Origin: a virus
Lineage: Duplodnaviria; Heunggongvirae; Uroviricota; Caudoviricetes
Reading direction: 5' to 3' (one strand)
Length of the DNA stretch: 46,862 bases
Virus record (IMG/VR): IMGVR_UViG_3300012007_000008
Coordinates: 128,001-174,862 of that record
The notes under the pieces are model-generated. The model ran no database searches and was not told the origin of the DNA. It worked only from the letters and a program-made list of their open reading frames with translations. A program made the translations under genes and the position numbers. Within the stretch, counting starts at the first letter, position 1, and every line of letters starts with the position of its first letter. This document shows positions 138 through 25,890 of the stretch, piece after piece.

Positions 138-1373
138 TCACATAAAGATTATGTCAAAGGATTCTTCACCCTGAACTTCAGAATCTTCGACAGTAGCGGT
201 ACAAGCCGCGATTATCCGCCGCCCGACGTATGAGTCATCTCCCAAGAACTTCACCTTGATCTTATTGTCTGTCACGCCAGGTTTGGTTTCTACCGGAGCC
301 TCAGTCCCATCGTCCATCCTGAACGACCAATTGTAAGACTGCGCCGGGATCTCTACCCCTTCCTCCGTAAAATATGTGGCAGTCAGCGTTTTGTACGCCC
401 CGCCGATCTTAAAGAGGGCAGTAGTAGAAGACACCACGACTGAGCCAAGCGGTACAATAGGTTCCTAAGATTCAGAATCATCTGTCTCAGGAGTTGCCGG
501 GAATTTGAACCAGTCCGCGTACATTCTCCAGTGATCTGGATCAGACTTGTCTATATAGTCGGTTTTGGGATTGAACGTATCCTGATAAAGCGTGAGCTGT
601 ACGACCCCTCTCGGAGTTGTATTCTCAACTTTAGAAATCTGCCAGGTAATAGGTACATCCATCGGCATACTCAAGATGACACGCTGATTATAGAAGATCT
701 CGTTCGATACACTGTTCCACGGAAGCCAAAACTTAGTTTGCATCTACATGACTGTGGTTTTGTCGAAACTGTAAATTCCCGAATTATATGACGACTGGGT
801 TCTCTGAGATCCCCACATTTTCCGCTTAAACCGACCCTCGGGTTTGTCTATCACCCAATCAAGCTGATAATTGCATCTGACAACGCCGAACTTCGGAAAC
901 TGGTTAGCCACATCCTCGTAAACAACCAGCCATTTCTGATAAACACCTCTGTCATCAGGAATGTCGACATATAAGCCAATCGGGTAACGGACACCGAAAC
1001 GCTTATATTCCCGGAAGTAATCCGGTACGATCGTCTGATTTTCAGGATCCTAGACCCCTTTATTCCAGTCTGACATAGTAAACTGAATGTAGTAATCCGG
1101 GTCATCCTTGGCCAACGACTTATAGTTCTTGATCAAGAACTTCAGCTTGACAGGAATTTTCGCAGAACCTTCTGGCGGGGCATAGTTCGCCCCATACTCA
1201 CATAGATCACTAGTAACCACATCGTCATGAAAATAGTCGTACAGGTAACAAAGCCGAGTTGTCACATCCAGATCAAATGTTTCATCCATGATCCGGTCGG
1301 CATCGGCCTTGATTTGCTTACCTACGGAAGCAGCCGTACCATAATAGCTATTCAACGCACTGAGATAAGCCAT
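138..1373 (-). CDS. Putative head-completion/neck protein (~411 aa), TAG-recoded
   Basis: ORFs 138-437, 465-743 and 1050-1379 share one frame and are separated only by TAG (465, 744, 1050); ends in TGA; lies downstream of the capsid gene. Function inferred from position. Confidence 0.6.
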
Positions 1374-1375
1374 GG

Positions 1376-1714
1376 TCAAACCACCTCCTCCTTCAGTTTC
1401 CCGATCTCTGCCCCAGCAGTGAGAATGCAGTTCCTATACGTCGGAAAGTCAAAATCCTCCCGCGCAAACTCATTCTTAGCAGATTCGAGCCAACTCATAC
1501 AACTGATTATTTCTGGCTGACATAGCAGTAGTTCATTCATCCCTGACAAGCGGCGGAGCAGATTCGTAAACGTCTTGTCAACATTTACCCCCGGGTAACT
1601 CGCGGCAGTTTCAGGATCCACAGCTAAGAGTAAGAAGAAAATAGAACTCCTAAGCCGTTTCTTTTCCTCCGCGATCTGTCCAGGCACAAATTCACCGCCG
1701 TACTTATGCTTCAT
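1376..1714 (-). CDS. Hypothetical virion-module protein (112 aa)
   Basis: Uninterrupted ORF; its ATG overlaps the TGA of the upstream gene (ATGA at 1711-1714). Confidence 0.7.
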   Translation of the reverse strand: MKHKYGGEFVPGQIAEEKKRLRSSIFFLLLAVDPETAASYPGVNVDKTFTNLLRRLSGMNELLLCQPEIISCMSWLESAKNEFAREDFDFPTYRNCILTAGAEIGKLKEEVV

Positions 1715-2172
1715 GACTACGAAGCCTCCACGGCAGCATTGTAGAACGTGTGATCCCTGATGAAGCGCTTCAGCTACACCTCACGCCGCTTAAGCTGTTG
1801 AAGGTTTATGTTAAGCGTATTCTTCAGGGCCTTTTCTTCTTTTCCACCAACGATATACGGACTGAGTGAGACAGAGTTATCCACCTGAGGATACATCCAC
1901 TCAATCGCCATCGCTTGAACGATCACGTCCTACACAAAAGCGTCCTCAGAAGCGGATTCGCCGTTGTTTATCCGCGTCCTGAGAACATAGTTGACTTCCT
2001 CGAAATCGTCATCCTGAGAGATAGAAGAGAAGAGTTTGCGGACTTCAGGTCGCGCCAACCCTCTCCTCAGATAATCTGCCAGGATAGATTTCCTGTCTTT
2101 ATTAGACATGGCTAATAGCGAAGGATCCTTTACGCGTGAGAGGAAGCTTCCGTAAATTTCGTTGTACTCCAT
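1711..2172 (-). CDS. Putative head-tail adaptor protein (153 aa), TAG-recoded
   Basis: ORF 1930-2172 continues through TAG at 1930, 1774 and 1717 to a TGA overlapping the next ATG; GGAGG-type RBS. Function from position only. Confidence 0.6.
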
Positions 2173-2188
2173 AGCTTCCTCCTTTCAG

Positions 2189-2875
2189 TTAGCTGAGGAA
2201 ATCCACGAGAACTGTGCCGGTAACATCGTCGATAATCTTCAGCTTGCTCACCGAAGGATAATTCTCGGCGTGAATCATGGAGATAGCTGTAAATTTGATG
2301 ATCTCGCGGATAGTCCTGTCCGCCGTGCGTAAGAACTTCTCAAAATCATCGTCCGACTTCTCGAACAGATCCTCCGGGTAATCAACCCCGATGAACGGCT
2401 TGTAGATATTACCGATGTCCCTTCTCCACTGGGACAGGAGATCCGGGTCTTCAATAAGAAGCTTCGGCCCAGTGATGATGTCCTGCTTTCTCCATGACTG
2501 AAGATCGCGGTAAGCAACATACTGTTCCGTTCCCCATCCCTCGAAGTAGTACGATCTCTGTTTGTCCATAGAGCTGATGTTCAGCTTCCACGGGCAGACA
2601 GACTTACACAGTATCTGATCGTCAGGAAGGAACTTCTTCTTTGAAACCGGGAGGGTGGCGGCCACATCAGGTTCAGACGCGGCCTTCTCATCGATCTTTG
2701 CCTATCCGATATAGACCTGTTTCTTCAGTTCCTCAAAATGTTTCTGTGCCACCGTGATCATGTCCTCGTCGGCATTCTGCATATGAGAGGAAACTTTGAA
2801 ACCCTGATCCTTCAGATAGGTGATGAGTTCCTTATTCTTGACGCCAAGCTCTTTAGATAAATCGTTAATTTTCAT
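2189..2875 (-). CDS. Protein following the major capsid gene (228 aa) with an N-terminal IF2_N-like domain; one TAG (2702)
   Basis: ATG at 2875 gives MKINDLSKELGVKNKELITYLKDQGFKVSSHMQN, resembling the N-terminal domain of initiation factor IF2; in frame with ORF 2189-2665. Confidence 0.65.
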
Positions 2876-2900
2876 ATCCTTTTAATCCCCTTTACTTCAA

Positions 2901-3995
2901 TTACTGAAGAAGAATCTCACCGAACAGCTCGTCTACGATGATACCAACACCCTGACAGAAAGCGATCAGGTGATCCTGGGTGTTATCCTGGATAGCGCCC
3001 TGCTGCGGATTCCTCTCGGTGTACTCAGTGACACCTTCAACAATGTACTTGATCGGCTTGAACTCACCATCATTCGGCATGATCATGATCTTGTTGTTGT
3101 TGAAGATGTTGGTACGAGTGTTGAGCTTGTTCATACGGTCAAGCGGCATAACATTGTAGCCCTCGTAATTGCCAAGGATCTGATAGTTGTGCCTGTCATC
3201 CTTCATCTGATTGGACCACAGCGAATACGGAACGGTGTTCTGAAGCTTCGCGATGGCAACCTTAGAACCAACAAGCGTGACATCCTTACCCGTCACGGAA
3301 CGAACAAGATCAATATGCTCGACGATAGCTTCGCGATCAGTGCCGTTGTCAGTAGTCGTACTCTGGATGATCATGTCAGACGGCAGGAACGTATCAAGGT
3401 TAGTGAACTCTTCATAGATCATCGCCTTGGTGTATTCCTCGATGGACTTCTCAGCGCGGGCAATCAGCTCGGTGAAGTCGATACGTCCAAGCATCATCTC
3501 GCGAACATTCGCGTATACAGCAATGTAAGCAAAGTCAGTATCAATACGATACGCTCTGCCGGGCTTCAGCTGCTGTCTCACAACGTCGGTGTGGTCATGT
3601 GCCCACTTCGAAACGATGAGTAGACTGTTATCCTTCACCCAGAATTCATTCATGTCACCCTCGGCAATGTTCTTCTGCTCAACCCAAGTCATGAAGAACG
3701 GATTAGTAATGCCGGACTGCATCTTGTCAGTAATGGTGTTCTCGATCAGAGAGTAGAGTTCGGGACCGTGAAGCCTCATGGCCTGACGTCTCTGCTGCGG
3801 GGTCGCGGTCTTGAAGTTAATTCCGAGAATGCGATCAAACTGAGTACGGAACATGTCGTTCGCCTAGTCATGACTGTACTTGACGTATACACCATTAGCG
3901 GCGTCATTCATGAGTTCCTGGAAAGCTTCAACGTTCTTTACGTCGTCATCAAACTTGCTGACCATGTAGTCAGAAAATACCAGAAGATTTCTCAT
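2901..3995 (-). CDS. Major capsid protein (364 aa), one TAG at codon 44
   Basis: ATG at 3995 after a strong RBS, in frame with ORF 2901-3854 via TAG 3864-3866 (KYSHD*ANDMFR); size and position after portal, protease and a ~200 aa gene match SPbeta YonB-type capsid order. Confidence 0.8.
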
Positions 3996-4020
3996 ATCTT
4001 TTCCCTCCTTTCTTCATTTA

Positions 4021-4635
4021 TTAAGAGATCTGCTTGTTCTGGACAGCCTGAATGTAGACCTTAGTGGTATACTCAAGGTTGTCAAAACCGAACTGATAGA
4101 TCTTACCGATAAAGCCGTAGGTAGCGGGATTAGCGGAAGCGACAGCCTTCCAGCCGCCGTTACCGTCAACTACAACATACTGGCCCTTCGCGAGCTTGTT
4201 TCCAGCGACGGAAGTGAAAGAATAATCAGCGATGCAGAAAATATCATAATCATCATCGGCGATCTCGTATGTCTTTACGTCCTTGCCGGCCTTGTTGTAG
4301 AAGAAGTGGCGCTCTTCCTGAGACTTGACAAGTGCATCCTTTACGATTGCAGGACTGCCTGTGATGGCGATCTTGTCACCAGCCTTAGCAATAGTTGCGT
4401 AGACCTCAGAAAGTCCATTTCCTGTTAGTTCACCGATCTTGACGGCGACTCCGTTATCCACATCAATCGGAACCAGCTTTGTTACAGCGCTAGCCCCTTC
4501 ACCTTCAGTTACTTCCTCGCAAACAAGCGCGTCCCAGATACGTCCACCGCCTGAGAACGTGCTACGAAGTCGACTAGATTCGAAGATTCCATGTCTATTC
4601 GCGGCTACAGCGGTTGCGTTAGTATAAATAGCCAT
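4021..4635 (-). CDS. Putative capsid-associated/decoration protein (204 aa)
   Basis: AGGAGG RBS before MAIYTNA; Gly/Ala-rich; sits between scaffold and capsid genes; no TAG. Confidence 0.6.
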   Translation of the reverse strand: MAIYTNATAVAANRHGIFESSRLRSTFSGGGRIWDALVCEEVTEGEGASAVTKLVPIDVDNGVAVKIGELTGNGLSEVYATIAKAGDKIAITGSPAIVKDALVKSQEERHFFYNKAGKDVKTYEIADDDYDIFCIADYSFTSVAGNKLAKGQYVVVDGNGGWKAVASANPATYGFIGKIYQFGFDNLEYTTKVYIQAVQNKQIS

Positions 4636-4668
4636 ATACTTATTCCTCCTTTTCATTTTTAAATACAT

Positions 4669-4695
4669 AAAAAGAGAGCGACCTAATCGCTCCCC
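4669..4695 (-). terminator. Intrinsic terminator-like hairpin
   Basis: GGGGAGCGATTAGGTCGCTCTC followed by a T run on the minus strand. Confidence 0.5.
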
Positions 4696-4707
4696 ATTCG
4701 TTCGTTA

Positions 4708-6408
4708 TTACCTCTTACTTCTATCTCTCAGCCCATCAAGGAAAGAGCTAGAAGACTCGTCCTTCTGAAGGAAGCCAAACATCTTCGGCTGCTTCTTCGA
4801 AGTGTCTTTACCCTAATCAGCCGCGAAACTCTGCTTCTTAGAAGGCTTGTCATCAAACTGAGCCGCAAAGGCCAGTTCACACTGAGTCTTCAGATCTTCC
4901 AGAGAATAATTCTCCTTATTCTCCCTCAGGGTCTTGAATTCCTCAGCTTCCTGATACTTCGCGTACTTCCCATCATTCAGGATCTCATCGCGCTTAGCGT
5001 TAAGTTCAGCCAACTCATACTTCGCAACCTTTTCCTGAAGAGAAGAATAGTTAGCCCTCATCTCATTCAGGGATGCCAGTTCATCGTCGGTCACGTATTC
5101 AGCATGAAGAGCGTAGCGCTCGCCATCCAAGTTTACGTTGTCGCCATCGACAGTGTACTTGGCTCCCCAGATCTGGTTTGACCAGAATCCTGAAGCGACG
5201 AACTTGCCGTCATATACCTTGTCGATGCAGTACCAGTCGTTGTCTTCCTCATCCCAACCAGAGATAAGGTTGTAGAGAGCGTAGCGGATGTCTTCATGGC
5301 TGATCTCAAAGTTCACGGAGAACTTAAGACCGTCGCGCTCGATTACACGGTTCAGAGAACGTTTCTTGCTGCCTGAATCGGTAGAAGAGTTGTCGTCATC
5401 GTCGCCATCGTCATCATCTTCATCGTCGTCACCGCTCGGCTCAGGGTCTGTCTGGTCGGGATCAGTTTGGTCATTGCCGCCGGTTTCTTCTCCGGTCTCA
5501 TCACCAGTCTCGCCGCCGGTTCCACCTTCACCTTCGCCATCAAACTGAGCGCCGTTCTCATTCAGATTCTCATTCTCTTCGTTAAGAGTTTTCTTCTTCA
5601 CTGTATCTTCCTCCTTCCCTTCATTATTTTTATTAAAGCTCTCGATTGTAGCCTTCAACCCGTCGAGAGATTCAATCAGAGTATTCATCTGATCTTCAGA
5701 GAAGGAAACTACAGGTTCTTCCTCTGAATAGGCAAAGTCTTTCAATTGAAGCTTTGAACCTACCATCCCTTCCTGAACAAATTCGCCCGTGTTAGGATTC
5801 TTACCTAAGAGGGTATATCCAGAAACTTCTACATCAGTCAGTTCAAGATATTTATCCTTTGCGTTATAAGAGCAAGCGTTTACTAAGAGTTCTACCGAAC
5901 CTTTAGTGCCACCTTCTCTTTCAATAATACTAGCAGCATGCGTATATTCTCTAGGGATAGCACATTCCGCTTCGAGATAATCTTTTCCGTTCTCGTCATC
6001 ATGAACAATCCGGGGTTCTTCGCTAGTGAAGCAACCAACCTGACGTTCTTGATATTCGACAGATCCGTCCTAATTGATGGTCATATCATGAGAAGTAAAC
6101 CATTCCAGTCCAGTTTCTGGATCAATCCAGAAATTAGCAAGAATAGGTTTATATTCGATAGTAGCCTTAGAATTCTCCGCTGCCTATTCAGTCACGCCCG
6201 ACCCATTTCTATTCCGAAATAAATGATATACACGGACAGTCCCAAATAACATTGTGTCAGTAGACTTGCTACTATTTTCCTCAAAGATAGCGGAAGAGCG
6301 GACAGCGATTTGGTATCCACTCTATTTTGCATCAAAATTGACGGAGTGATTATGGTCAACGAAAAAATAATAAAGATCATCCCAGGTCAGTATTTTCTTC
6401 CTCTGCAA
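4708..6408 (-). CDS. Prohead protease/scaffold fusion (566 aa), TAG-recoded
   Basis: TTG start after AGGAGGTG; single frame to TAA 4708 with TAG at 6322, 6184, 6070 and 4813; N-terminal NRNGS...KPILA and SVEL motifs, then an acidic linker and coiled-coil C-terminus; follows the portal. Confidence 0.75.
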
Positions 6409-6426
6409 CCAGATCACCTCCTTTAC

Positions 6427-6615
6427 TTAAAAATCAAGACGATTCGAGTATGTCGCGTTAGTAATATCTAACTCGTCATAAAGCTTCATGTCATTCAGGA
6501 ACGTTGCGGTTTTGCCGTCGTAGGAGAGAAGAGTAAACCCGAGCGATTCAAGCGTTTTCTTCGTACCCTCGTCCTGAGTCTTGATAAACTTCTGGTTCTT
6601 ATCTGTTTTATTCAT
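6427..6615 (-). CDS. Small hypothetical protein (62 aa)
   Basis: Start overlaps the portal stop (TAATG). Confidence 0.6.
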   Translation of the reverse strand: MNKTDKNQKFIKTQDEGTKKTLESLGFTLLSYDGKTATFLNDMKLYDELDITNATYSNRLDF

Positions 6616-8159
6616 TATTTATTCCCCTTATCCTCATTTTTACCGCTGTCGCGGGTTGATACGCCTTCAGGCGAAAGATCCCCTTCATCCTTCTCAGGGC
6701 GGCCATTTTTATTATCCGACTGGGTATAAGATGTTTGTAACGGATCCATATATTCCTGAATCTGAAGGATATCCTTCTCGAATAATAGTTTATTCTTCAA
6801 AGAGTACGGATCTGAGCCGAGAGCAATCAAGTAATCGGTTTTTGATCCGCCCAAAGTCGCTGCCTCCTTCTTCTCCGCTACATATTCATCGTGATTGTAG
6901 CGAGTAAGATCAAGAATCTCGAAATGCACATTCTCAGCAATATTCTTCTTGATATAGAAGTTGAACCAAGACTCGATCCGGCGAATCCAGATAGAGATCT
7001 TGCCAAGATCATTTGCAATACTGTACTTTATTCCAGAGGCATTTGAGGAATTTCCGCTACTTATGATTAGCCTGTTAATACCCGCATTAGCGAACAGGTT
7101 ATTCATGGCGTTGCCGAGTTCATCAGTATCCGCCGTAGAAGTAGACTTCTCAAAAGACACCACCTCAACATCACACGGCGTAGTACCGACTCCGACGTTA
7201 TCCGGGACAGCCTCTTCCTCCATAGCCTGGAAGTAGTTGAGCATATCCAAGGAGACCGCGAAGTCATCCACGTCCTCTGTATTCTTCAAGAACGGGATCT
7301 TGTTCAGGATCAGCTTGTAATTCTGAAGCTCGTTCTTATTCGCAATCAAAGTCTCTGTGTCCAAAAGCTGGAGCAGAGACTTAAATAAAGGTAGGAAGTA
7401 GGGGAGCGGCAAATAGAACTCGTCGCTTGTCGTCGCAATGAAACAAGCGGTTAATTCCGGTGTGAGCTGAAACCACTGATAATCACGCCCCTGGTTCTTA
7501 TAGGCGTTGTACCCATCAACAAAGCACGGATCCCAGAGGCCCGTGCCTTCTTCATCACCGTCTATGACAAAGTCTTTGTTGTTTCCCTGATCAAAATAGG
7601 AGGCGTCGAAGTAGACAATCCACTGACCTTCGGGCGTCTTACCGTAAATCCGGCAGTACTTGATGTCCAGCGGCATCAGGAACATGCCATTTTCTTCGGA
7701 GTTATACATGAACCCGACGAACATTCCGTCCCTGAGCATCTGAAAGATAATGTCGTTCAGTTCCCCGGGGAGATTAAACCCATGTAGGAGAGTGGCGACT
7801 GTATTGTAGTTCTTCAACTACTTGGCACTCATTCCCTTCGACAAGTCGACGAGAGGAGTGAGATTGTACCTATACTCGTACATAGAAGCGTAGTACTGAA
7901 GCATCAGCTTGTATGGCATGGACACACGAGTCAGAAACCGCGAGATTTCGCGGATGTTGTCAAGGTTGTTCAGCGGCGACTGTGTGTAGTCATCCAACGT
8001 CTCACGCGTATACTGAGTATACGTCTTCGTGAGCACCTTTGCCGGATTTCGCTGAAGGATCCTGTCAGATATACTCTGGAAGAAAGAACGATCCATTTCC
8101 TGAGCGCGTTCCCTCTTCAGTTTGTTACTGCTATTGCCGAAAAGATTAAAAATACCCGT
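6615..8159 (-). CDS. Portal protein (~514 aa), one TAG (7818)
   Basis: ORFs 6615-7817 and 7818-8168 are contiguous in frame; immediately downstream of the terminase; C-terminal PLQTSYTQS...GRP motif typical of SPbeta-type portals. Start uncertain: ACG 8159 is best spaced from the RBS, GTG 8168 lies inside it. Confidence 0.8.
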
Positions 8160-8175
8160 AGCGATCACCTCCTTC

Positions 8176-9633
8176 TTACGAATATCTTGTTACTTTCACC
8201 GGGCGGCGAATGCGTAACATATCTTTGTAGTTGCTCTCAATCTTGCGAGCTGGTATTATCTGTTTCCTACGTTCCAACATGAGGGCAAAACACGCCATTG
8301 CGGACACATAGGCGCGGTCATCATGCATACGTGAAGCCTTTTCTGGGATCAATTCAAATGAATCCTTACCAGACTATCTCCGTTTCCTTACCATGTTCGT
8401 AAGTTCCTATTTGAGAGCGTCCATATTAGCGAGAGCTATCTTATCTTCCCAATCGAGCTTGATAGTTTTCGTTTCAAGCTCTGACGTCAACTCCTACTTG
8501 AGCCGCTTTTCAAAATCTGCCTCGTTGAGTTTCTATTTCTTCAGTTTCTCTACTAGTTTGGCCTTCTTCTTAGCGGTCTCTTCTTCATCGATGTCGAACA
8601 CCGTCAAATGATCTTTATTGTCATAAGGCGCAGTAAAAGACACCTTATCCTGATTCATTAACTCTATCATGGATTCAAACATTTCAGATTTATATTGAGA
8701 CGGGGAAATAAGACGAAGCTTATCTACAGCGTTCGGGAATTTCTTCACGTATTCAGAAGAGTATTCCTTATCAATCAAACCCCGATGAACAATTCCTTCA
8801 GAATCAGTCCAGTCTGACATAAGAAAGTCGGCTATATTTACGCCGCCTCCACCAGACCCGGCATCAACAAAAACGCCTATGATATTCCCGTAAGCATCGG
8901 CCCCGCCGTTATAAGCGAGAATTACCTTCTTCAGATATTCAATCTGATCAGGCGTTTGCATAGGCGACTTAAGCCTTTTACCTACATCAACAAGATTGAT
9001 ACAATTGACAAAACGCATTCGTTTGTCTATGGCGCCATCAATTCTGATAAAATCGTATATCTACGCTACTAGAATCACAGAATTGTCGCGACTTCGGGCC
9101 GGGTCATAACAGATCACAAACTTTTTATCTCCAGTGTCGTTGTATAGAAGAGGTTTTCTGGTCTCTTCATTACGAATGATAACTGAGCGTTTGATGATCG
9201 CATCGGTTCCGGCATCTGTCGTGAATTCACAGTAATACTCACGACGGGCTTTGTCAGGATTGGTTCTAATCTCACTCTAAATAATCGAAGATTCGAAGAG
9301 CGGATTCATTAATTTACCGTGAATAGTCGGATGAAGCGGAATATCACACGTTATCACCGCCACGAAATATCTTTTATCACCCATGATCATTCTCTTGGAA
9401 AATTCCCTGAAAAAGCTATAAAACTTCGTATCTGTTGAAGAAGCAGAAGATATGTAAAATAATTGGTTAGGAATTTCTCTTGGAAGAGTGCGAAGTCTAA
9501 CGGAGTCAATCATATTTCCGTTTCCGTCACGTCCTGATTTAAACGATTTGTTAACGATAGCGAAAGCGCCGTAGACGTTCATCATTTCCTAAGATAAGAA
9601 ACCACACTAATCGAAAATTACGTTACCACGAGC
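8176..9633 (-). CDS. terL: Terminase large subunit, exon 2 (Walker B plus nuclease domain), 8 in-frame TAG
   Basis: ARGNVIFD*CGF (Walker B), YISSAS, YDPARSRDNS, VDAGSGGGG and HDDRAY motifs; open to TAA 8176 if TAG is sense. Confidence 0.9.
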
Positions 9634-11064
9634 CAATTTGTTATCCTTCAGGCTTTTTATCCTGAAGCTCTTGCAGTTTTAGTTCCTGCAACGTTCGGCG
9701 TACCTTTTCACCTACAGCGTTATCTGTTTAGGGGCGGGGACTCTTGGGAAGATTATATTCTGTTTCCAGCTTCACTTCCTACGCTCTGCGTGTGACCAAG
9801 CTTTTATACTTAGCCTTCCACTCGGATTGGCATTTCAGCCTTCCCGATTTCTTCCCCGCTTCAATAAACCAGTCATTTCTAACTGGCGAGGCCCTCGTGG
9901 TCATTATTATTCAAACTACTTAAATAACGCTTATATTTACGATCTAAGTAAATATTAGCATCATCATAAATCCAATGAAGATATTTTTGCGTAAATCCAT
10001 GTCCCGCAATCTGTAAACGGTAGCAATCCACAAATTGATCTTTTGCTGGTTTATGGAGGCAAATATAGGAATTAATTCCATTCTCATATAATATTGCCCT
10101 TAATTCCTCTAAGAAAACTTTAGATACAGAATAAAAACAACACTCAGCTACTTTATAATGAAAATAAATACACCCATCACCATCAAAAAATCCTCGCACA
10201 AAATCTTTATATAAATGTTTAGGAATTTGAGGCAAAGTCATAGTATATGTTTTGTCTCTGGTAACGCCAATTTTTTCAAGATCTTTCATCATTTTCTGAG
10301 AAAATATTCTGAGACAACATAATTCGTGCAGAGTATCATATTTACTTAATGAACATGGCCTCCACCTTGTTGTAATTCTATAATTACCGGCAATTGATTT
10401 ATTAAATTTTTTCAAATGGCTATAATCTTTAATGGCTAATTCTATGCCGACAACACCACTATGCGTAGTATCATTTTCATTTATCCAACCGTCTGCGTAA
10501 ATAAAACCAAGCCAATAAGCTTTTTCTTCTGTATCAATATTATGAAAGAAATCATAATCACAATAATAAGGGGATTTTTTTAACCCAAGTTTACTTCCTT
10601 TTATATGGATAGAATTCTATGTTCTCCCCATCATTTCTGCGATTTCAGGATTAGAGAAATCATAATATACAGATTTTAAGAATTCTATTTCTTCTTCTGT
10701 CCAGGAGTCTTTTTTAACAAGATTTAAGTCAAAACACTTAGCTCGAATATTACTCTCTGTTCTTCCTAATTTCTCGGCAATGTCAGAATATAACATGCTT
10801 TCATAGTTTTCTTTTAAGAAATTTACCTAATATTCTGTCCAACGTGTTTCTAACTTTTTTGTAAAACCTAATTGGCTCAATTTTGTAGATATAGTTCCTT
10901 TTGTTCTTCCTAATTTTTCTGCCATCTCCGCATGAGTCATTGTCATGTAGTTTTCTTCTAAAAATTTAATATCTTCATCTGTAAATCTTTTAATTTTCAT
11001 TTATACTTTCCTTTCTTCATATAGAAATTTAATTATATAAACAAAATAATTATAAGTCGATTCG
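9634..11064 (-). mobile_element. Group I intron in terL carrying a homing endonuclease
   Basis: Removing it joins KKRG|ARGNVIFD in frame; 5' exon ends in U and intron ends in G; guide sequence ACCACGAGGGCCTC (9888-9901) pairs with the 5' exon (GAGGU, U-G pair) and the 3' exon (CUCGUGGU); core-like motifs AAATCGGGAA, AATCCGAG, CAGAGCGTA and AAGGTACGCC at 9634-9870. Confidence 0.85.
9873..11000 (-). CDS. Intron-encoded double-motif LAGLIDADG homing endonuclease with three N-terminal HTH-like repeats (375 aa), 3 TAG
   Basis: AYWLGFIYADG and DFVRGFFDGDG motifs; C-terminal YLDRKY; ATG 11000 with RBS; TAG at 10827, 10617 and 9879; TGA at 9873. Confidence 0.85.
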
Positions 11065-11670
11065 ACCTCTTTTTTTATCAATATTGCTGTTGAGCGTCTG
11101 TGTATAAGACCCATTATACAAATTATAATTAAATCCGTTCGATGAATGGCTAAAACCGTCACCGGCACTATTATGAATTTCAACCTCATTTTTAAAAACG
11201 TTAAAGGTTGAACCCATAAACGAGTCAATGTTGTCATTCGCCAATCTTTCCAAAGTTGAAAATGTTTGTTCTGCTTGGCTTCCAGATCCACTGGCTATAT
11301 ATGTCCAATAATTATTCATCAACATATCATGAGCCATTGTAATAATATCAATTACGGAACTTTTCCCGTAACCCCGGCTTGCGACCAATAAAACATTTGG
11401 ACAAATCCACGCTTGCTGAACAATCCAAGCTTGAGAATCCAAAAGCTATACATTAAACCAGTCGTTTATAAACCTAACGGGGTTACACTGATAGTACTTC
11501 TGAGCATAGGCGATCTTTACCAAAGACTATATCTTTCTCTGAGAAAGGGCATAGATACCTTCCCTGACAAATATTTTATTTTCCTGATAATGGTTTTTTA
11601 GTTTATGCTCAGACACTTTACCCTAATCTATAAGCGACTGCTTTATTTGTTCAAAATCATCCAGTTTCAT
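11065..11670 (-). CDS. terL: Terminase large subunit, exon 1 (Walker A), 3 in-frame TAG
   Basis: ATG 11670 after GGAGGTG; NPVRF and ASRGYGKS (Walker A); TAG at 11623, 11527 and 11446. Confidence 0.9.
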
Positions 11671-12979
11671 CAGAATCACCTCCTTCTTCGGCGGCAAATT
11701 CTGAATACAGACTTTCAAGATCGATATACTTATATCCGGAGATTTCAATATCTTGATCCTTTATAAAATCCCTTAAATCAAGATTCTCGGACAATAATAT
11801 TCGGGATATCTATATATACTTATCCAAATCATACTGAAGCTTAGTAATCATCTATCTCTGCCCAGCAACTATATCCGACCACTAAGAATCATCTAAGCGA
11901 AGCTGTTGAAGAATAGAAGCATTACTCTAATCCATTACCTGTCGCATTGCCTTCGCGGTTTCAATGTCAAATCCGTTCATACGACCCTGTCTCAAATCAA
12001 GATCCTTAATTCGCTTAAGTTTTCCTGACCACGTATTCTACCCTTTCTTCGCGTTTTTATTATTCTTCAGCGAAATACAGGATTCCGCAGCCAGACTCGT
12101 AATCTGTGAAGTCAATTTTTGCTTCGAATCCTGAAGGCTTTTAATAGTGGCGGAATTCCGCTCTATATTCTTCGGATTAGACATCAGATGAGCTATAGTG
12201 TTGTCAATCTTCTGAACCTGAAGAAATCCTCTGACTATAGAAATACAGGAAGAGTTGCGCATCATGTCGTCGTTTTCATCTCCTCCGGCATCTATTAGGC
12301 CGATTAACTGAGAGTACAGAAACGGCTGGTCACTAACGGCCTCCATATCAAACGGGTCGTATCCAAGAAGCCGGGTGACATCTTTCTTGTTTTTTAAATA
12401 TTCATCAAGATTCTAAGTTCCGGCTTGTTTCTTCAATTTCTCGTTTTCCGGCAATTCATCATCATAGATGATTTTCTCTTTATAAAAATCGGAATCAAAA
12501 TACGTTTCTGTATTATATTGACCCATAGCAACATTCTTAATGTAAGCAGTCCATACGTTTGTTTTGATCTTACCAGTAATGAGATTTTCAGATTCCTGTA
12601 CAGAAGAATCCCATAACAAGTTATGAAAAGGCTTATTTAAATATCTAAGTGCAAGTTGGACAGATTCCTTAGTCGGTTCATGTTCGTCGCCATTTCGATC
12701 CACCCTAAGAGCAATCTTGCGAGCGCATTCCTTACAGATGGGGCAGATGCCGGACTATATCATCGGATCTGTGCTAACATAAAAATGGCTCCTGTCCTTA
12801 TGTGTATCACACATGTAACAGTAGCCATATGACTAAAATTTCTATACTTTATTTCTTAATTTCTAATACTATACTCGTAGCTATGCAGTCGTCATCTTTT
12901 TAGACACCACTTCATCATTAGCCTTTGCTTTTACTTTAGCAGTAGTGGTGCGTGATTTTAATGGTTTTACTTTATCCAC
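11657..12979 (-). CDS. Zn-finger protein upstream of terL, candidate terminase small subunit (440 aa), 12 TAG
   Basis: GTG after AGGAGGTG; CYMC...CPICKEC; ORFs 12038-12346 and 12413-12703 are in the same frame; ends in TGA overlapping the terL start. Confidence 0.65.
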
Positions 12980-13019
12980 TGAAGTGGCACCTCCTTTTAA
13001 TCCTTATTTCTTTTATTAA

Positions 13020-13091
13020 CGGGGGCTATAGGATTCGAACCTATACATATGGGGACCAAAGCCCCATGCCTTACCTTTTGGCGAAGCCCCT
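13020..13091 (-). tRNA. trnQ: tRNA-Gln(UUG)
   Basis: Cloverleaf; anticodon arm TGGGG-CTTTGGT-CCCCA; T arm ATAGG-TTCGAAT-CCTAT; G2-C71, G3-C70, G73 and unpaired 1-72. Confidence 0.9.
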
Positions 13092-13110
13092 ATTAGCTAA
13101 TTAAACAACA

Positions 13111-13183
13111 TCACCCCACTCGGATTCGAACCGAGGATTCCTGATTTAGAGTCAGGCGACTTAGACCGCTTGTCGATGGGGCG
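13111..13183 (-). tRNA. Amber suppressor tRNA (anticodon CUA) with a tRNA-Glu-like body
   Basis: CGCCCCATCGACAAGCGGTCTAAGTCGCCTGA-CTCTAAA-TCAGGAATCCTCGGTTCGAATCCGAGTGGGGTGA folds as a complete cloverleaf; anticodon at 13147-13149. Confidence 0.93.
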
Positions 13184-13461
13184 AGATCCGAGTCGTTGTA
13201 GACTCAGTAACTAGGTGGCTCACCCCACCTCGGACTATTACGGCCATACAATGTACCGTACTGTTAGAGATATTTGAAACGAGTAGTCGCTCGTTTATTT
13301 GTAGACTTTCTTCGTAAATGACGAGGAGTGCCCAACTCACCTTTGTAAACACCGAAAAACATACCGCTTATTAGATAAACGACATAATAATTCGACGTCT
13401 ATAATGAGTGAAAACAAAATCGAATTGCTTCTCAGATAACCCATCTCACCCTTGTAATATA

Positions 13462-17666: not shown

Positions 17667-20429
17667 TCAGGTTCGATGCTGTGAGTTTCCCTTTACGAAA
17701 TTTGACAAAAACAGATCTTTATCCATCCTATATAGGCAGTTTAATATCTGCCTTGAGTATTTTACGTTATTTCTCTGGTACACTTTATTCACTTTATTTG
17801 TGCTTCCGTCTAAATCCAATGCAGTTTCTATCAAACGATTGATAGTAACCGGATTCTTGATTCTGATTTCTCGTAACTACTTCGTAACTTTCCCCATAGT
17901 TCTAACAATCTCAGCAACCATCTCTTCGGGGCTGTCTACTCCTCCCATTAGCTGGCGGCGAAGAGTGTCACTATAAATTCTAATAATCCGAAGAATCTTC
18001 TATGACATATGCCTATTTGTATGCCCCTTCATTTTTATAAAAAACTATTCTGTCGGAATCCCTGGCTATCTTGTCATGCCCTGAATCTTATTTAGATGAT
18101 CCTGTAACCAGTTCATCGGACAGACGAATTCATTACTAATTCTATTCTTGAGCTTATTCTTGCCTTCTTTGACGATTTCATACGGAAGTTCTTCACCGTT
18201 TTTTGTATGAGGAACGTCGCGGGTGTACTTCATAAATAACGGAAAGTCTTTTTTTTGAGTGTGGACTTTACCAGAATTGTCTCTATACTGAATTTCTTTG
18301 ACCATGCATGGTTCACGGAGAATTCGTTTGATTTCTTCAAGACCGTCTTCTATTTCGTAGACTCTTTTACATCCATCTATGATTATTTGAGCAAGTACAC
18401 TTAGAATAATAAAATACTAATAATAACTTTGCATATCCTGTTTATTAGGATCTTGTTTTGCTAATTCTGTCCAAAAATAACTCATACAAAGTTGAGCGGC
18501 GTTAGAACTCCAGCCGATTCCCAACTGGGAATGAGCCATCATGTTGTCCATTCGCGCATAATCAGCCATGGTATTGTTGTATACCAAACCTGATTCTTTG
18601 AGGCTATTTACTATAGTAGGATATTTCTCATAGCAAATCTTCGCAGCTTTCACCAAAGTGGGATGATTGGACACAAAATTGAAGTCCGAATCAAAATCTT
18701 CGCCATTCATCCTAGACTGAATGTCTGTTTCTATGCAGTTTACCGCCATAATATTGGAGCTAAATTCGAAATACTTTTCCATTAGTTCATGTTTTATATT
18801 AAGGAAATACCCTAAGTTGTTGGGAGAGTTATGAGGGTTGCGTATCCCTAAAAGATACTCGCCATCCTAAAATCTTGGTGTATAACACTCGATTACACCT
18901 GATCTCGGCCTCAATGTTGGATCTTTTTGCCAATCTTCGCCAACAGAATAGAGTAGTAGAGCATAAGGATTTCCGCAAACCGTCAGATTATCCCCCTCAA
19001 CAAAGATTTTTCCGTTTCTCAATCTGAACACATATTGGTTGATAATTCCTCGTTTTTCCCGCCTAAACCATCTAGAATTAGCAATTTCAGGGTTATGCCT
19101 ATACAGATCCGCCATCATTTCGTAATGATTGATCTCGTTGGCGTTTTCTCGTAGGAATTCTTCAAACTTATCAGGATTTCTCTTTAATTCCTCGACATAT
19201 TCAATACTTGTCCTTGCTACCTCACCGATTTCATCTTTGTTTAACGGAAGAGTATTAACCATCTGGTATGACATCTGTTGGTATCTACCGAGTTTTGACG
19301 TGTGATCAGTCTTGACAATGCCCCATTTACATCCGTCGGCGCGAATTTTCTCGCACCAATAGTCGTAAGCAGCGGTGAGAGTACCGCCCATCTGAGACAA
19401 GAACTTTTTCCACTTGATGGAATTATCCGTAGTGATCATCTGGATATCTTTTAACCGATGCGAATACCCGAACATATCCTGAACTTCGTAAGTTTCGTAG
19501 TCGTTTCCCGTCTTTTCACACCAATCCCGGAAGAATTTCTGGATACGTGTCCTGAATGCGCAAGCCTTGAACATATGATTCCTCAGTAAGCACATCCCGT
19601 TGACCCAAAGCGGGAGAGAATCAGTGTCGATCAGCGCCATTCCATCCCATAAAGTGTTCTTTACCTACGTTTCCTCGTGCTAAACGACACATTTTTTCGC
19701 TGTTTCACCATTCGGTTTGACATAATCCTCGGCTTTTACGACTTCGGCGACCGTTTTGAAAAAAGAATCCTGGTCTTTTAGGATCAAGATGTTCTCTACC
19801 GGAATGCTGAGCAATCCGACTATTGTGGACGTCGTGAGAGGGGCATAAGCGCTCATTTCAACGATTTTCGCGCCTTTTTCGGGCAATTTTATGCCCATCG
19901 TGAGCCAATTATGCGCCGTTTCGTATAATTCCTCCCGGATAAACATCACTTCGCCGACTTTCGCCTTTGCCGGAGTCCTAAAAAGCATGACATAGTGGAT
20001 TTTGTCAGCATATTCGATGTTGCCTTCTGAATCTCGGTATTCATACACGACATCAACGCCTTCTTCGTAAAACTTCGTCCGAATCTATTCACGGGTTAAA
20101 GCGACATATTTTTCCTTGTTCTCATCAACTTTGTCCAGAATTCGCTGAATACTGGCGCGTTCTTCATCAGATTTTGCTTTCTCAAAAAGTTTTTCTACAC
20201 GTTTTCTCTACTCTTTATAGGATTTTGATCCGAAGTCAAATCGGAGGCAAATTACATCTCTTGTAGATTCTTCGTTGTAAACCTAAAGCCCATGTTCTCT
20301 CATGTAGTAGTAGAAGAGGGAATTGTTTAACATCGCATCCGTATAACTCACGTAATCCCTAATTCCGATATTATGCTAATAGAGCATTCCGGCAGAATAA
20401 TTCTTTATTCGGACACCGTATTCACTAAT
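17667..20429 (-). CDS. YonO-like single-subunit RNA polymerase of the RdRP-like two-barrel family (~920 aa), 12 TAG
   Basis: ORFs 18066-18305, 18417-18782, 18867-19640 and 19680-20048 share one frame joined only by TAG; NTLWDG, RNPHN and catalytic RMNGEDFDSD motifs; upstream of HU/YonK/YonJ/terminase as in SPbeta; likely ATT start after GGAGG. Confidence 0.8.
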
Positions 20430-23365: not shown

Positions 23366-24301
23366 TTAATGGGCAAATAAATCTGCTTCATGTAATTTTT
23401 CTAAATCAGAAATAAATTCTTCTCCGAACAATTTTACGTCTCTATCCTTCGCTTTGCCTGACTGTTTCCATTCCATGTAAGGCGCCATATGCCGTTCTAT
23501 AAGATTTGCGATATAAATACAGTCGTCTACGTTAAAGTGGCGGAAGAGTTTATTATTTGCCAAATAAAACAATGATTCATATGCTGATACATTATGGTGA
23601 TTGTAATAGTGTGCGTCTGTCGTGAGATTCCCGTTTCTGTCAACAAAACTCTTCGTGTATGGTTTCCCTATGTCGTGAAGAGCCGCCGCCGCTTCAAGTT
23701 TTTTATTCTCGGGCCAGTTCTCTCTGATATAATCTCTTGCGAGTTTCAGGTGGCGGCCGAGAGTGAGAGAGTGGTGCGAATTTTCCTGATCATAATCCCA
23801 GAAGGGATAATTATTATCTTCCCAAAATCCGGGTTCGGTATATTTTGTTAACGGACTATTAGAAAATATAATATTTACGGAATCGAAGCCCTCATAAGTC
23901 GACGCTGGCTGCCACGAATTACAGTGCTTAATAATTACTTTTGCAGGAACTTTTCTTTCTCTTGAAGTATTTCTTTCAAGACAGTCACCACAAGTACTCA
24001 TAATCATATATGCCGATTTTTTACACGGGATCTTTTTTATTTCTCCTAAGAACGCCATTCTTCTTTTGCGTTTTAAGTTCGTTGCGTCGTAGACTATGCT
24101 TTTACCTTCCGCAAGATCCCGCTTGATCCGCCTATGTAACTCCTGAAATAATTCCTGATTGTGTTCCTGATCACTTTCGTCTCCATAAAGTTCTTTCCGC
24201 AAAGTGTCGGACGAATGAATGACGTATCCAGGTTTAAGTGAATTAGCAAAGCTTGTCTTTCCGGCTCCAGCCAGACCTATTAGCATAAGCATTTCGGGCA
24301 T
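23366..24301 (-). CDS. Polynucleotide kinase-like P-loop domain fused to an HD phosphohydrolase (311 aa)
   Basis: GLAGAGKT, SSD.LR and YDATNL kinase motifs; HH..LG.H, LHDIGK and HEAD HD-domain motifs. Confidence 0.85.
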   Translation of the reverse strand: MPEMLMLIGLAGAGKTSFANSLKPGYVIHSSDTLRKELYGDESDQEHNQELFQELHRRIKRDLAEGKSIVYDATNLKRKRRMAFLGEIKKIPCKKSAYMIMSTCGDCLERNTSRERKVPAKVIIKHCNSWQPASTYEGFDSVNIIFSNSPLTKYTEPGFWEDNNYPFWDYDQENSHHSLTLGRHLKLARDYIRENWPENKKLEAAAALHDIGKPYTKSFVDRNGNLTTDAHYYNHHNVSAYESLFYLANNKLFRHFNVDDCIYIANLIERHMAPYMEWKQSGKAKDRDVKLFGEEFISDLEKLHEADLFAH

Positions 24302-25394
24302 TCTCTAAAAACCTCACTTTCTTATCTAATGTAAGTTGATTCCAGTATTCATTCGCGTTCTTCACTTTTCCGTCAAGAAGGGCGAATAACGGAGCGGAAT
24401 AGGGCGTCTTGGTCGCGTAAGCCGCAAAATCAGCGCGGTTCGTAGCTTTAGAAATCTCTTCATAAATCCTGTCTATTTCTTTACAGGTATTATCAATCTC
24501 CATCCTGAGTTCAGAAAACTGATCTTCATATTCCGGAAAATAAGTTAAAAATTCCGGCGCATCGTCCAATACTTTCAACATTCGTTTTTCCGTTACTGTT
24601 CCATTGCCGATTATGTGGTGAAGTGCGATCCATGCCGGCGATTTTACCTTGATTCGGTGCCAGTGGTTATCTACTACCACGAATCCTTCGCTGTCGTAGG
24701 GGAGTTCCTTTGCGACTTCAACGCATTCTTCCAGAGAAGAGAGAGAATACGTCTTTGGAGTAAATAAACCCAGGCTTTCAGCATTCCACGGGCGGCGTTC
24801 TTCAAAATCGTAAATATTGCGGCATCCGATCAAATATAAGGCGGGTTCTGGATACGGAACTACGATCCTGTTATATGGAGATACTAATTCAAAAATCCAG
24901 GTATACGGATAGGCAAGTTTGCTGAGATCTACATTCTGCCTCTTGGCGGCGTAATCAAACAATTCTCTGAAATTGCGGAATCCGGCAGAGTTTGGCGGAA
25001 GAGGAGCATCGGCCGCATCAACACACCCGGAAGTCGAAACGTGCGTTCCGTTGCCGTCTTTCCAAACAATGATCATTGAACCGTCGATTTTTTCCTGGAC
25101 TTCTGCTTTAACCCAGTTGATTTCGTCAGCGTAAGATTCACCGTAGTTGCCGAATTTTCGAAACGGCATTGCTACCACTGTATAGTCAACGGTTCTGCCG
25201 GATAAGACATCCTCTCTGATGATCAGACTACGGCATTCGCGGACAAGTTCATTTTTAAAATCCGCGTTAATATTATAATGCAGCATGATGTACGGTTTCT
25301 TTTCGATCACTTTTATTTGATAATCGTTTCTCAGCCGATCTTTCCAGTCATCAGGAAACGCGGCCATAAAATCCAGAATTCTCAATTTACTCAT
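24243..25394 (-). CDS. T4 Rnl1-like RNA ligase (383 aa)
   Basis: ECRSLI, PFRKFGN, EKIDGS (motif I), FELVSPYNRIVV, EGFVV and KVKS motifs; start MSKLR after GGAGG. Confidence 0.85.
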   Translation of the reverse strand: MSKLRILDFMAAFPDDWKDRLRNDYQIKVIEKKPYIMLHYNINADFKNELVRECRSLIIREDVLSGRTVDYTVVAMPFRKFGNYGESYADEINWVKAEVQEKIDGSMIIVWKDGNGTHVSTSGCVDAADAPLPPNSAGFRNFRELFDYAAKRQNVDLSKLAYPYTWIFELVSPYNRIVVPYPEPALYLIGCRNIYDFEERRPWNAESLGLFTPKTYSLSSLEECVEVAKELPYDSEGFVVVDNHWHRIKVKSPAWIALHHIIGNGTVTEKRMLKVLDDAPEFLTYFPEYEDQFSELRMEIDNTCKEIDRIYEEISKATNRADFAAYATKTPYSAPLFALLDGKVKNANEYWNQLTLDKKVRFLENARNAYANRSGWSRKDKLC

Positions 25395-25464
25395 AAAAAG
25401 AAGCCTCCTCTCTAATAGGAGACTTCTAAAACTGAGATGAAACCAAACCTCGAAAAAACGATGA

Positions 25465-25890
25465 TTAGCGGTTGAATAGCCCAGGCAATTCTCGCGGCTC
25501 GTAACTAAGCTTCTCAATGCTGTGTCCGGCTTTAGTTACTTTGCTAATATTCTTGTCCGTCAATGCGCCGTCAACTATAGATTGAAGAACTGAGTGTTCG
25601 TTTTTTATGTCTCGCCGCCTACGGAGTCTTGAGCGCAGATTCTTGATCAACAACCAGCTTCGGTACATGTCTAAGTTATCTGAGAACTCTATATAGTGCT
25701 CCAGATCCGAGATGGCGCGATCTTCGTAAGATAACTGTTTTGATATATGGCCGAATCTGAGTTTCGCGGTAGACGAATAATTGTTGAATTTTTTCAATTG
25801 TTCTTCTGCGAAAGTTGGAGAATCATATGAGGGGATTGCGTCCTTAAGAGCTTTTATACTTGCATTGATTTTGCGGCAATTGGTTGCCAT
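25465..25890 (-). CDS. Coiled-coil hypothetical protein (141 aa)
   Basis: AAGGAG RBS; DLEHYIEF...RRDIKNE...YEPR. Confidence 0.7.
   Translation of the reverse strand: MATNCRKINASIKALKDAIPSYDSPTFAEEQLKKFNNYSSTAKLRFGHISKQLSYEDRAISDLEHYIEFSDNLDMYRSWLLIKNLRSRLRRRRDIKNEHSVLQSIVDGALTDKNISKVTKAGHSIEKLSYEPRELPGLFNR

Follow-up and report, generated by a model that had tools for sequence, protein, structure and literature searches.

The large gut phage examined here (record G000) shows a real and new form of phage stop-codon recoding. It probably uses an unpublished code in which UAG encodes glutamate and UAA and UGA remain stops, a code that would be imposed by phage suppressor tRNAs of tRNA-Glu descent alone and that would have persisted while these suppressors were swapped between unrelated phage families. 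A36 and the inverted 1-72 and 11-24 pairs would not prevent a discriminating host GluRS from charging the suppressors, and sisters of one phage family would follow the standard code, TAG=Gln or TAG=Glu. The window, i.e. the whole stretch of 46,862 nt that was analysed, corresponds to positions 128,001-174,862 of the 174,862-nt record, which is 88% complete, and it carries a tRNA gene with a CUA anticodon (13111..13183, minus strand).

Phage genome and distribution of TAG codons

Coding density, estimated by a greedy procedure, was 0.722 under code 11 and 0.889 with TAG read as sense, the values for TGA and TAA being 0.798 and 0.806. Among strand-consistent ORFs of at least 150 aa, drawn from a mechanically defined ORF set, in-frame TAGs occurred in 33 of the 39 that lie in the late region (minus strand) and in 14 of the 51 in the early regions (plus strand; p 5.6e-8), and TAG made up 15% of the TAG+GAA+GAG codons in late genes and 1.4-2.5% in early ones. 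The genes for DNA polymerase III alpha, helicase and primase contain no TAG; it is present in those for the terminase, portal, tail and endolysin and in a gene for a probable RNA polymerase of 906 aa. This 175-kb phage reads TAG through, mainly in its late genes.

Within the window, the portal protein gene (6615..8168, minus strand, phrog_2739) has a single TAG and the 906-aa gene (17667..20387, minus strand, phrog_8308) has 12; the product of the latter is likely a single-subunit, YonO-like phage RNA polymerase, going by its DFDSD motif. Reading through TAG also restores a block of late genes at 138..6417 (minus strand), whose position makes them probable head genes. Elsewhere in the record, a 6353-aa ORF (L007:88-19149; G000:C1:101488-120549, minus strand), probably encoding the tape measure protein, holds 183 TAGs, or 29% of its TAG+GAA+GAG codons.

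The terminase large subunit gene is split into a 5' piece with three TAGs (11050..11748, minus strand), whose real start is probably downstream of the listed TTG, and a 3' piece with eight (8176..9636, minus strand, phrog_2). Both pieces match a single ORF in each of the relatives G001 and G002, and the interruption is due to an insertion of about 1.43 kb (9634-11071, minus strand) holding a LAGLIDADG ORF (9873-11000, three TAGs). The insertion is likely a group I intron; Rfam returned no group I intron in it at the gathering threshold. The record also encodes a set of RNA repair and modification proteins (Thg1, two RNA ligases, HAD_SAK_2, a kinase-HD protein and an IscS-like desulfurase) at L002:15175-15981, L002:18850-19767, L003:10935-11396, L003:16190-17296 and window 23366-25517, with a ligase and kinase pair adjoining tRNA-Lys and tRNA-Leu. 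A PDB search with an ERCC4-like ORF as query gave no match.

Assignment of TAG by comparison with homologs

For 22 window genes, translations in which each TAG became X were aligned with 161 loci of three collections, these being translated in all six frames, so that the resulting tally carries no prior assumption about the code. Homolog data were obtained for 47 of the 60 TAGs in these genes, and the majority residue at these columns was E in 22, D in 8, N in 4, K in 3, Q in 2 and another residue in 8. The E-majority share (22/47) is lower than that of Glu codons (250/400). All ten strongly conserved TAG columns were E and none was Q, the control values at conserved columns being E in 63 of 73 for Glu codons, and Q in 34 and E in none of 40 for Gln codons. 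TAG columns differed from Gln-codon columns (Fisher p 3.4e-9), with an lnL of Gln of -38.9 relative to Glu. Once 12 recoded or suspect loci had been removed, the TAG columns were E in 8/8, 9/9 and 6/6 cases at three thresholds, five were invariant Glu across 35-49 contexts, and no conserved one was Pro, Tyr or Lys. At the level of single codons, Glu was faced by the TAGs at 11448 (43/46) and 11529 (36/42) in the 5' piece of the terminase gene, at 8409 (40/40), 9063 (38/38) and 9609 (35/35) in its 3' piece, and at 11812 (45/45), 11884 (37/44) and 12040 (49/49) in a conserved 440-aa gene with 12 in-frame TAGs (11657..12979, minus strand, phrog_3314). Internal repeats supplied three usable TAG columns only (E, S, D).

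When 32 TAGs of G000 were compared with G002, the opposite codon was GAA in 12 cases, GAG in 8, TAG in one and CAA or CAG in none; reciprocally, 30 TAGs of G002 faced CAG 19 times, CAA 6 times and GAA once in G000. With G001, 26 of 56 TAG sites were common, and the 30 non-shared TAGs of G000 stood opposite GAA (11), GAG (5), CAG (4) and others (10). Among the loci compared, TAG was assigned to Glu in G000, G001 and L197 and to Gln in L026 (G002), L022/L024 and L235, with no sign of recoding in most other loci. These alignments indicate that TAG almost certainly means glutamate in the G000 phage, as the original prediction had proposed from the tRNA.

We consider it very improbable that UAG is ambiguous or read as Gln, with the Glu alignment reflecting tolerated Glu-to-Gln changes. 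In E. coli, amber suppressors frequently end up inserting Gln or Lys according to the accessible text of PMC1483225 (Normanly classes), and the four CAG codons of G001 opposite G000 TAGs could be read in the same sense, but TAG-CAG is a transition, expected with TAG=Glu as well. A Gln share of up to about 26% would be compatible with the ten conserved TAG columns; none of them is Gln, however, the five invariant Glu columns span 35-49 contexts, an identical test gives the reverse pattern for the TAG=Gln sister G002, and the tRNA has neither G73 nor U1-A72 nor G3-C70.

A quick one-gene tree of 40 rows, which retained the long rows L010, L018 and L032, joined the Glu clade (SH-aLRT 99), a Gln clade (99) and a pair with the standard code at an open trichotomy (97), and L022 appeared as a separate Gln lineage. 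A passage of the Glu clade through a TAG=Gln stage is disfavoured, because only 1 of 32 TAG sites is common to G000 and G002.

The CUA tRNA gene and its surroundings

The Rfam RF00005 match is exactly 13111-13183 (minus strand; 57.5 bits, E 6.3e-10), ARAGORN calling the gene at 13110-13184 (minus strand), and no CCA is encoded. Numbering of this Glu-type body gives an acceptor end made of C1-G72, a G2.U71 wobble, C3-G70 and A73, a D stem of G10-C25, A11-U24 (an inverted pair), C12-G23 and A13.A22, a D loop of 9 nt with G18G19 present, a 5-bp anticodon stem with the loop CU-CUA-AA, and a variable region of 4 nt (AATC) with U46 and without nucleotide 47. The CUA anticodon, C1-G72, A73, enlarged D loop and AATC variable region first described for this gene are all borne out by ARAGORN, Rfam and the numbering, and G2.U71, A11-U24, A13.A22 and U46 are to be added to that description. 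The exact D-arm and anticodon pattern had zero matches among viral contigs. An MFE fold recovered the acceptor, anticodon and T arms; folding energy adds little here, because z was only -1.83.

Genuine tRNA-Pyl is marked by a 6-bp anticodon stem, a 3-nt variable loop, a D loop lacking GG and a PylRS nearby. The label of tRNA-Pyl assigned by ARAGORN was rejected on the basis of the 5-bp anticodon stem, the 4-nt variable region and the presence of G18G19; neither PylRS nor any other synthetase occurred among the 133 Pfam-scanned ORFs.

A contig from run X2, which agrees with the possible source run in year and habitat and is perhaps not independent of it, spans the gene with three differing letters (13097, 13108 and 13206), all outside it, and contigs of runs X4, X5 and X7 likewise span it. 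A promoter scan gave four weak sites against 2.3 expected, and a terminator scan one against 0.9. The roughly 100 nt immediately upstream of the suppressor (window 13190-13290) display apparent inverted complementarity by eye, possibly a structured leader.

ARAGORN at its default threshold found only four tRNAs over the whole 174,862 nt: Gln(UUG), the CUA tRNA, Lys(UUU) and Leu(UAA). The conventional tRNA-Gln(UUG) lies 19 nt downstream of the suppressor (13020..13091, minus strand; ARAGORN 13019-13092, also matched by Rfam) and possesses the features earlier ascribed to it, with an A1/C72 mismatch, G2-C71, G3-C70, G73, a shorter D loop (7 nt) and a 5-nt variable region; its score in the classifier presented below is Gln +23.2 bits.

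Isotype of the tRNA body

For isotype assignment, a naive-Bayes classifier was trained on 462 tRNAs of the Acetatifactor family and of this phage family, with the anticodon masked, and recovered 47/51 Glu and 39/41 Gln tRNAs in leave-one-out trials. Glu was the top class for the window CUA tRNA, 24.8 bits ahead of Gln, at an absolute Glu score of only +1.9 bits, a result that ranks it weakly as Glu. The Glu-Gln difference was +29.7 for the CUA tRNA of G001, -16.5 for the suppressor of L026 (TAG=Gln) and -9.3 for the CUA tRNA of L251. There was at least one false positive, L374 (+16.8), whose TAG columns were nevertheless Q in 6 and E in 1 of 10.

In the consulted part of PMC9976931, the Glu determinants of E. 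coli include G1-C72 and U2-A71, both of them weak, and U11-A24, U13-G22:A46 and C36, and the CUA tRNA has none of these five. Set against the bacterial tRNA-Glu presented there, it retains U35, A37, the missing nucleotide 47 and the enlarged D loop, and departs in carrying A36, C1-G72 for G1-C72, A11-U24 for U11-A24 and U46 for A46. Among the 51 training tRNA-Glu, C1-G72 was found in none, G2.U71 in 22, A11-U24 in 4 and U46 in 5; A13.A22 is common to the CUA tRNA and all 25 host-family tRNA-Glu. Host tRNA-Gln displays G73 (27/27), U1-A72 (22/27), G3-C70 (27/27) and C11-G24 (27/27), where the CUA tRNA has A73, C1-G72, C3-G70 and A11-U24, together with A36 in place of G36. The proposal of a Glu-like body stands insofar as the gene is closer to Glu than to Gln, and is weakened by the low absolute score and by the several textbook Glu elements that are missing. 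As signs of Glu identity, the 4-nt variable region and A73 are not diagnostic, since both occur in crAss-like CUA tRNAs (nearly all with U1.G72), the pattern used to find the latter having itself required these two features. C1-G72 fares less clearly, being absent from the training tRNA-Glu but present in 17 phage tRNA-Glu(CUC) genes.

A charging of this tRNA with some other residue, or its idleness while another tRNA reads UAG, is scarcely credible. C1-G72 with A73 marks recognition by ProRS and archaeal TyrRS, C1-G72 being listed for bacterial Pro and archaeal Tyr in the text seen of PMC9976931; the training set has the pair in 19 Pro tRNAs and 6 Tyr tRNAs, and ARAGORN proposed Pyl. Against these hints, the conserved TAG columns are free of Pro, Tyr and Lys after filtering, no second CUA tRNA was found in the record, and the top class of the classifier is Glu.

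Probable host and aminoacylation

The original prediction had seen no synthetase or release factor in the window, an observation that now extends to the whole record. Six-frame searches detected no GluRS/GlnRS catalytic domain (PF00749) in G000 or five other records, including the complete G073, no GluRS anticodon-binding domain (PF19269) in four records and no RF-1 domain in the 88%-complete record, and tblastn with the host GluRS gave a best E of 0.25. Pfam scans were run on 42 ORFs of the window and, outside it, on 91 of the 108 candidates of at least 90 aa, omitting 17 ORFs judged to lie on the wrong strand and the 6353-aa ORF; the six-frame searches span the record in full. A phage synthetase or helper, lying in the missing 12% or unrecognised, would be needed if the tRNA were too atypical for host GluRS alone. 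The inverted 1-72 and 11-24 pairs, A36 and the RNA-handling genes of the phage (Thg1, two RNA ligases, the kinase-HD protein and the IscS-like desulfurase) lend this some colour, but it is given very little weight in view of the domain and tblastn searches and of the natural phage tRNA-Glu(CUC) genes that share the acceptor end.

Relatives of the phage occur in four MAGs titled Clostridia, Eubacteriaceae and Acetatifactor, and named NifS homologs belong to Lachnospiraceae at about 50% identity; from these titles and matches, the host would be a Clostridia bacterium, probably of the Lachnospiraceae. In the Acetatifactor family, glnS exceeds the cut-off in 58 of 61 genomes and gatB in 29 of 41, and 23 of 25 GluRS have Arg at the position of T. 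thermophilus Arg358. This residue acts unalike among bacteria and is no universal marker of discrimination, as stated in the accessible text of PMC3927822.

The original prediction had favoured a non-discriminating GluRS and made escape from GatCAB the key step. In the inferred host family, neither point finds support in the frequencies of glnS, gatB and Arg358-type GluRS. A host without GlnRS, whose non-discriminating GluRS would charge the tRNA while C1-G72 blocks GatCAB, is consequently unlikely if the host guess holds. In its favour, one of the four MAGs with relatives has no glnS match over the cut-off, a GluRS tolerant at position 36 would ease the handling of A36, and GatCAB needs U1-A72 according to the part of PMC9976931 consulted; against it, the sister phages with TAG=Gln have G73 suppressors, which fits GlnRS-bearing hosts.

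The most likely route is an ordinary host GluRS, which would probably charge the CUA tRNA with Glu so that UAG would be read as Glu in late infection. As a counterpoint, an Arg358-type GluRS should disfavour A36. In E. coli, the glutamate amber suppressor described by Normanly et al. (1990) reportedly inserted mostly Glu, with some Gln. GlnRS captures many amber tRNAs, as described in the available portion of PMC1483225.

Related suppressors in other phages

When tRNA-Glu(CUC) genes that end in U71-G72-A73 were sought, the scan yielded 120 loci, 40 distinct matches and 24 cloverleafs, their Glu label coming from the anticodon only. C1-G72 was present in 17 of these 24 genes selected for U71-G72-A73, and the acceptor end of the suppressor is, by this count, natural for a phage tRNA-Glu class. 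The phage tRNA-Glu(CUC) genes (L389, L400, L491 etc.) share with the window tRNA the acceptor end and the 4-nt variable region, have a variable 11-24 pair and differ by the anticodon, CUC instead of CUA, a single change (C36A).

A second scan, for CUA tRNAs whose D stem is of the Glu type, gave 26 loci. Outside the anticodon, the nearest kin (in L356/L362/L371) agrees with the window tRNA at 55 of 68 positions, and 8 of the 13 differences amount to four swapped base pairs (1-72, 11-24, 27-43 and 49-65). In L356 this tRNA has G1-C72, U11-A24, A46, C73 and an encoded CCA (L356:1810-1885), and it adjoins a tRNA-Glu(UUC) and a C1-G72 tRNA-Glu(CUC) (L362:9701-10054). The G000 terminase had no match in the kin records, four of five of which are fragments, and the kin loci have almost no match to G000 proteins, so these phages appear to belong to another family. 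The holder of the nearest-kin tRNA (G070) has few in-frame TAGs; one tail-gene column was mixed (Q 28, E 23), and alignments of its integrase with PDB entries were uninformative on the meaning of TAG. This meaning was tested at 27 loci, 18 of them without a usable homolog column. The CUA tRNA of L381 (G072) is identical at 50 of 68 positions, and the strongly conserved TAG columns of its phage were E in 4 and Q in none of 8; 18 TAGs of G072 faced GAA or GAG in 10 cases and CAA or CAG in none when compared with G070.

G001 possesses its own Glu-type CUA tRNA with U11-A24, U13.G22 and A46, encoded in the early region and identical to the window tRNA at 40 of 68 positions. Since the two phages nevertheless share TAG sites, the code would have been kept while the tRNA gene was replaced. 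This suppressor (L119; G001:C1:118774-118846) has C33 in place of the near-universal U33.

Several further tRNA genes were observed in these collections. The CUA tRNA at L084:7782-7857 (G005:C1:26437-26510) has a clear Trp body (+31 bits), belongs to a relative with no recoded TAG in the genes compared, and is either a suppressor without recoding or a one-base tRNA-Trp variant. The CUA tRNAs at L026:7259-7350 and L019:13991-14082 are about 92 nt in length and combine G73 with a long variable arm; the L026 phage reads TAG as Gln, for which such a body is unusual. A cluster of tRNA-like genes (L109, L123, L126, L129 and L132, G001:C1:52429-53607; L130 and L133 in G002) combines similar acceptor and T arms with anticodon arms that depart from the norm, having loops of even size or long inserts. 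L160, on a contig of 63% GC whose coding density peaks with TGA read (0.98), has a CUA tRNA with C1-G72, G2.U71 and A73.

The proposed mechanism starts from the CUA tRNA as decoder of UAG, a role given to it because no other CUA tRNA was found in the record. In a host equipped with GlnRS and a discriminating GluRS, C1-G72, C3-G70, A73 and the missing C11-G24 would keep this tRNA off GlnRS and GatCAB, the acceptor end serving mainly GlnRS exclusion, and U35, A37, the missing nucleotide 47, the enlarged D loop and A13.A22 would permit charging by GluRS despite A36, probably inefficiently. CCA would be added by the host, the suppressor would compete with host RF1, and the TAGs in polymerase, terminase, tail and lysis genes may gate late expression on the suppressor level. 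The suppressor gene likely arose from a phage tRNA-Glu(CUC) via C36A and would move between phage families.

Place among recoded genetic systems

The accessible text of Borges et al. (10.1101/2021.08.26.457843) describes two reassignments only, TAG to Gln and TGA to Trp, in phages whose code departs from that of the host, and TAG is likewise taken as Gln for the recoded phages in the parts consulted of PMC10607447 (phAss-1) and PMC13037316. No published report of phage TAG=Glu was found by our search, outside which fell most subscription papers and preprint supplements (Borges Table S1). The code-15 gut phages (crAss-like, Lak, Agate), as described in the texts available, likewise concentrate TAG in structural and lysis genes, carry a phage CUA tRNA without a synthetase, infect hosts of standard code and include close relatives differing in code; they read Gln, whereas G000 reads Glu and has a CUA tRNA devoid of Gln determinants. 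By description only, the size and mixed codes of the Agate clade of Borges et al. would fit G000. Outside phages, UAR=Glu is described in peritrich ciliates, with UAA=Lys and UAG=Glu in an uncultured ciliate (PMC11687900), and UAR=Glu in Blastocrithidia (PMC12153298). In the sections seen of these sources, such eukaryotic codes are nuclear and genome-wide and reassign UAA too; in G000, by contrast, UAA and UGA are still stop codons, and the phage imposes the reassignment on a bacterial host of standard code.

Conclusions

A phage in which TAG means Glu breaks the published generalisation that amber recoding equals glutamine, and counters the idea that GlnRS and TrpRS alone are easily hijacked. 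Annotation that assumes code 15 by default gives such phages the wrong residue at TAG. For one tail protein of a TAG=Glu phage, the five nearest public homologs (P0117-P0121, >85% identical) have Q at 13 of 14 TAG sites, likely through code-15 translation, and more distant homologs have E at conserved TAG sites. A natural Glu amber suppressor may serve genetic-code work, and the window tRNA with its four-pair-swapped kin constitutes a natural experiment on the identity rules of GluRS. Sister clades with three codes offer a way to study how a stop codon gains a new meaning.
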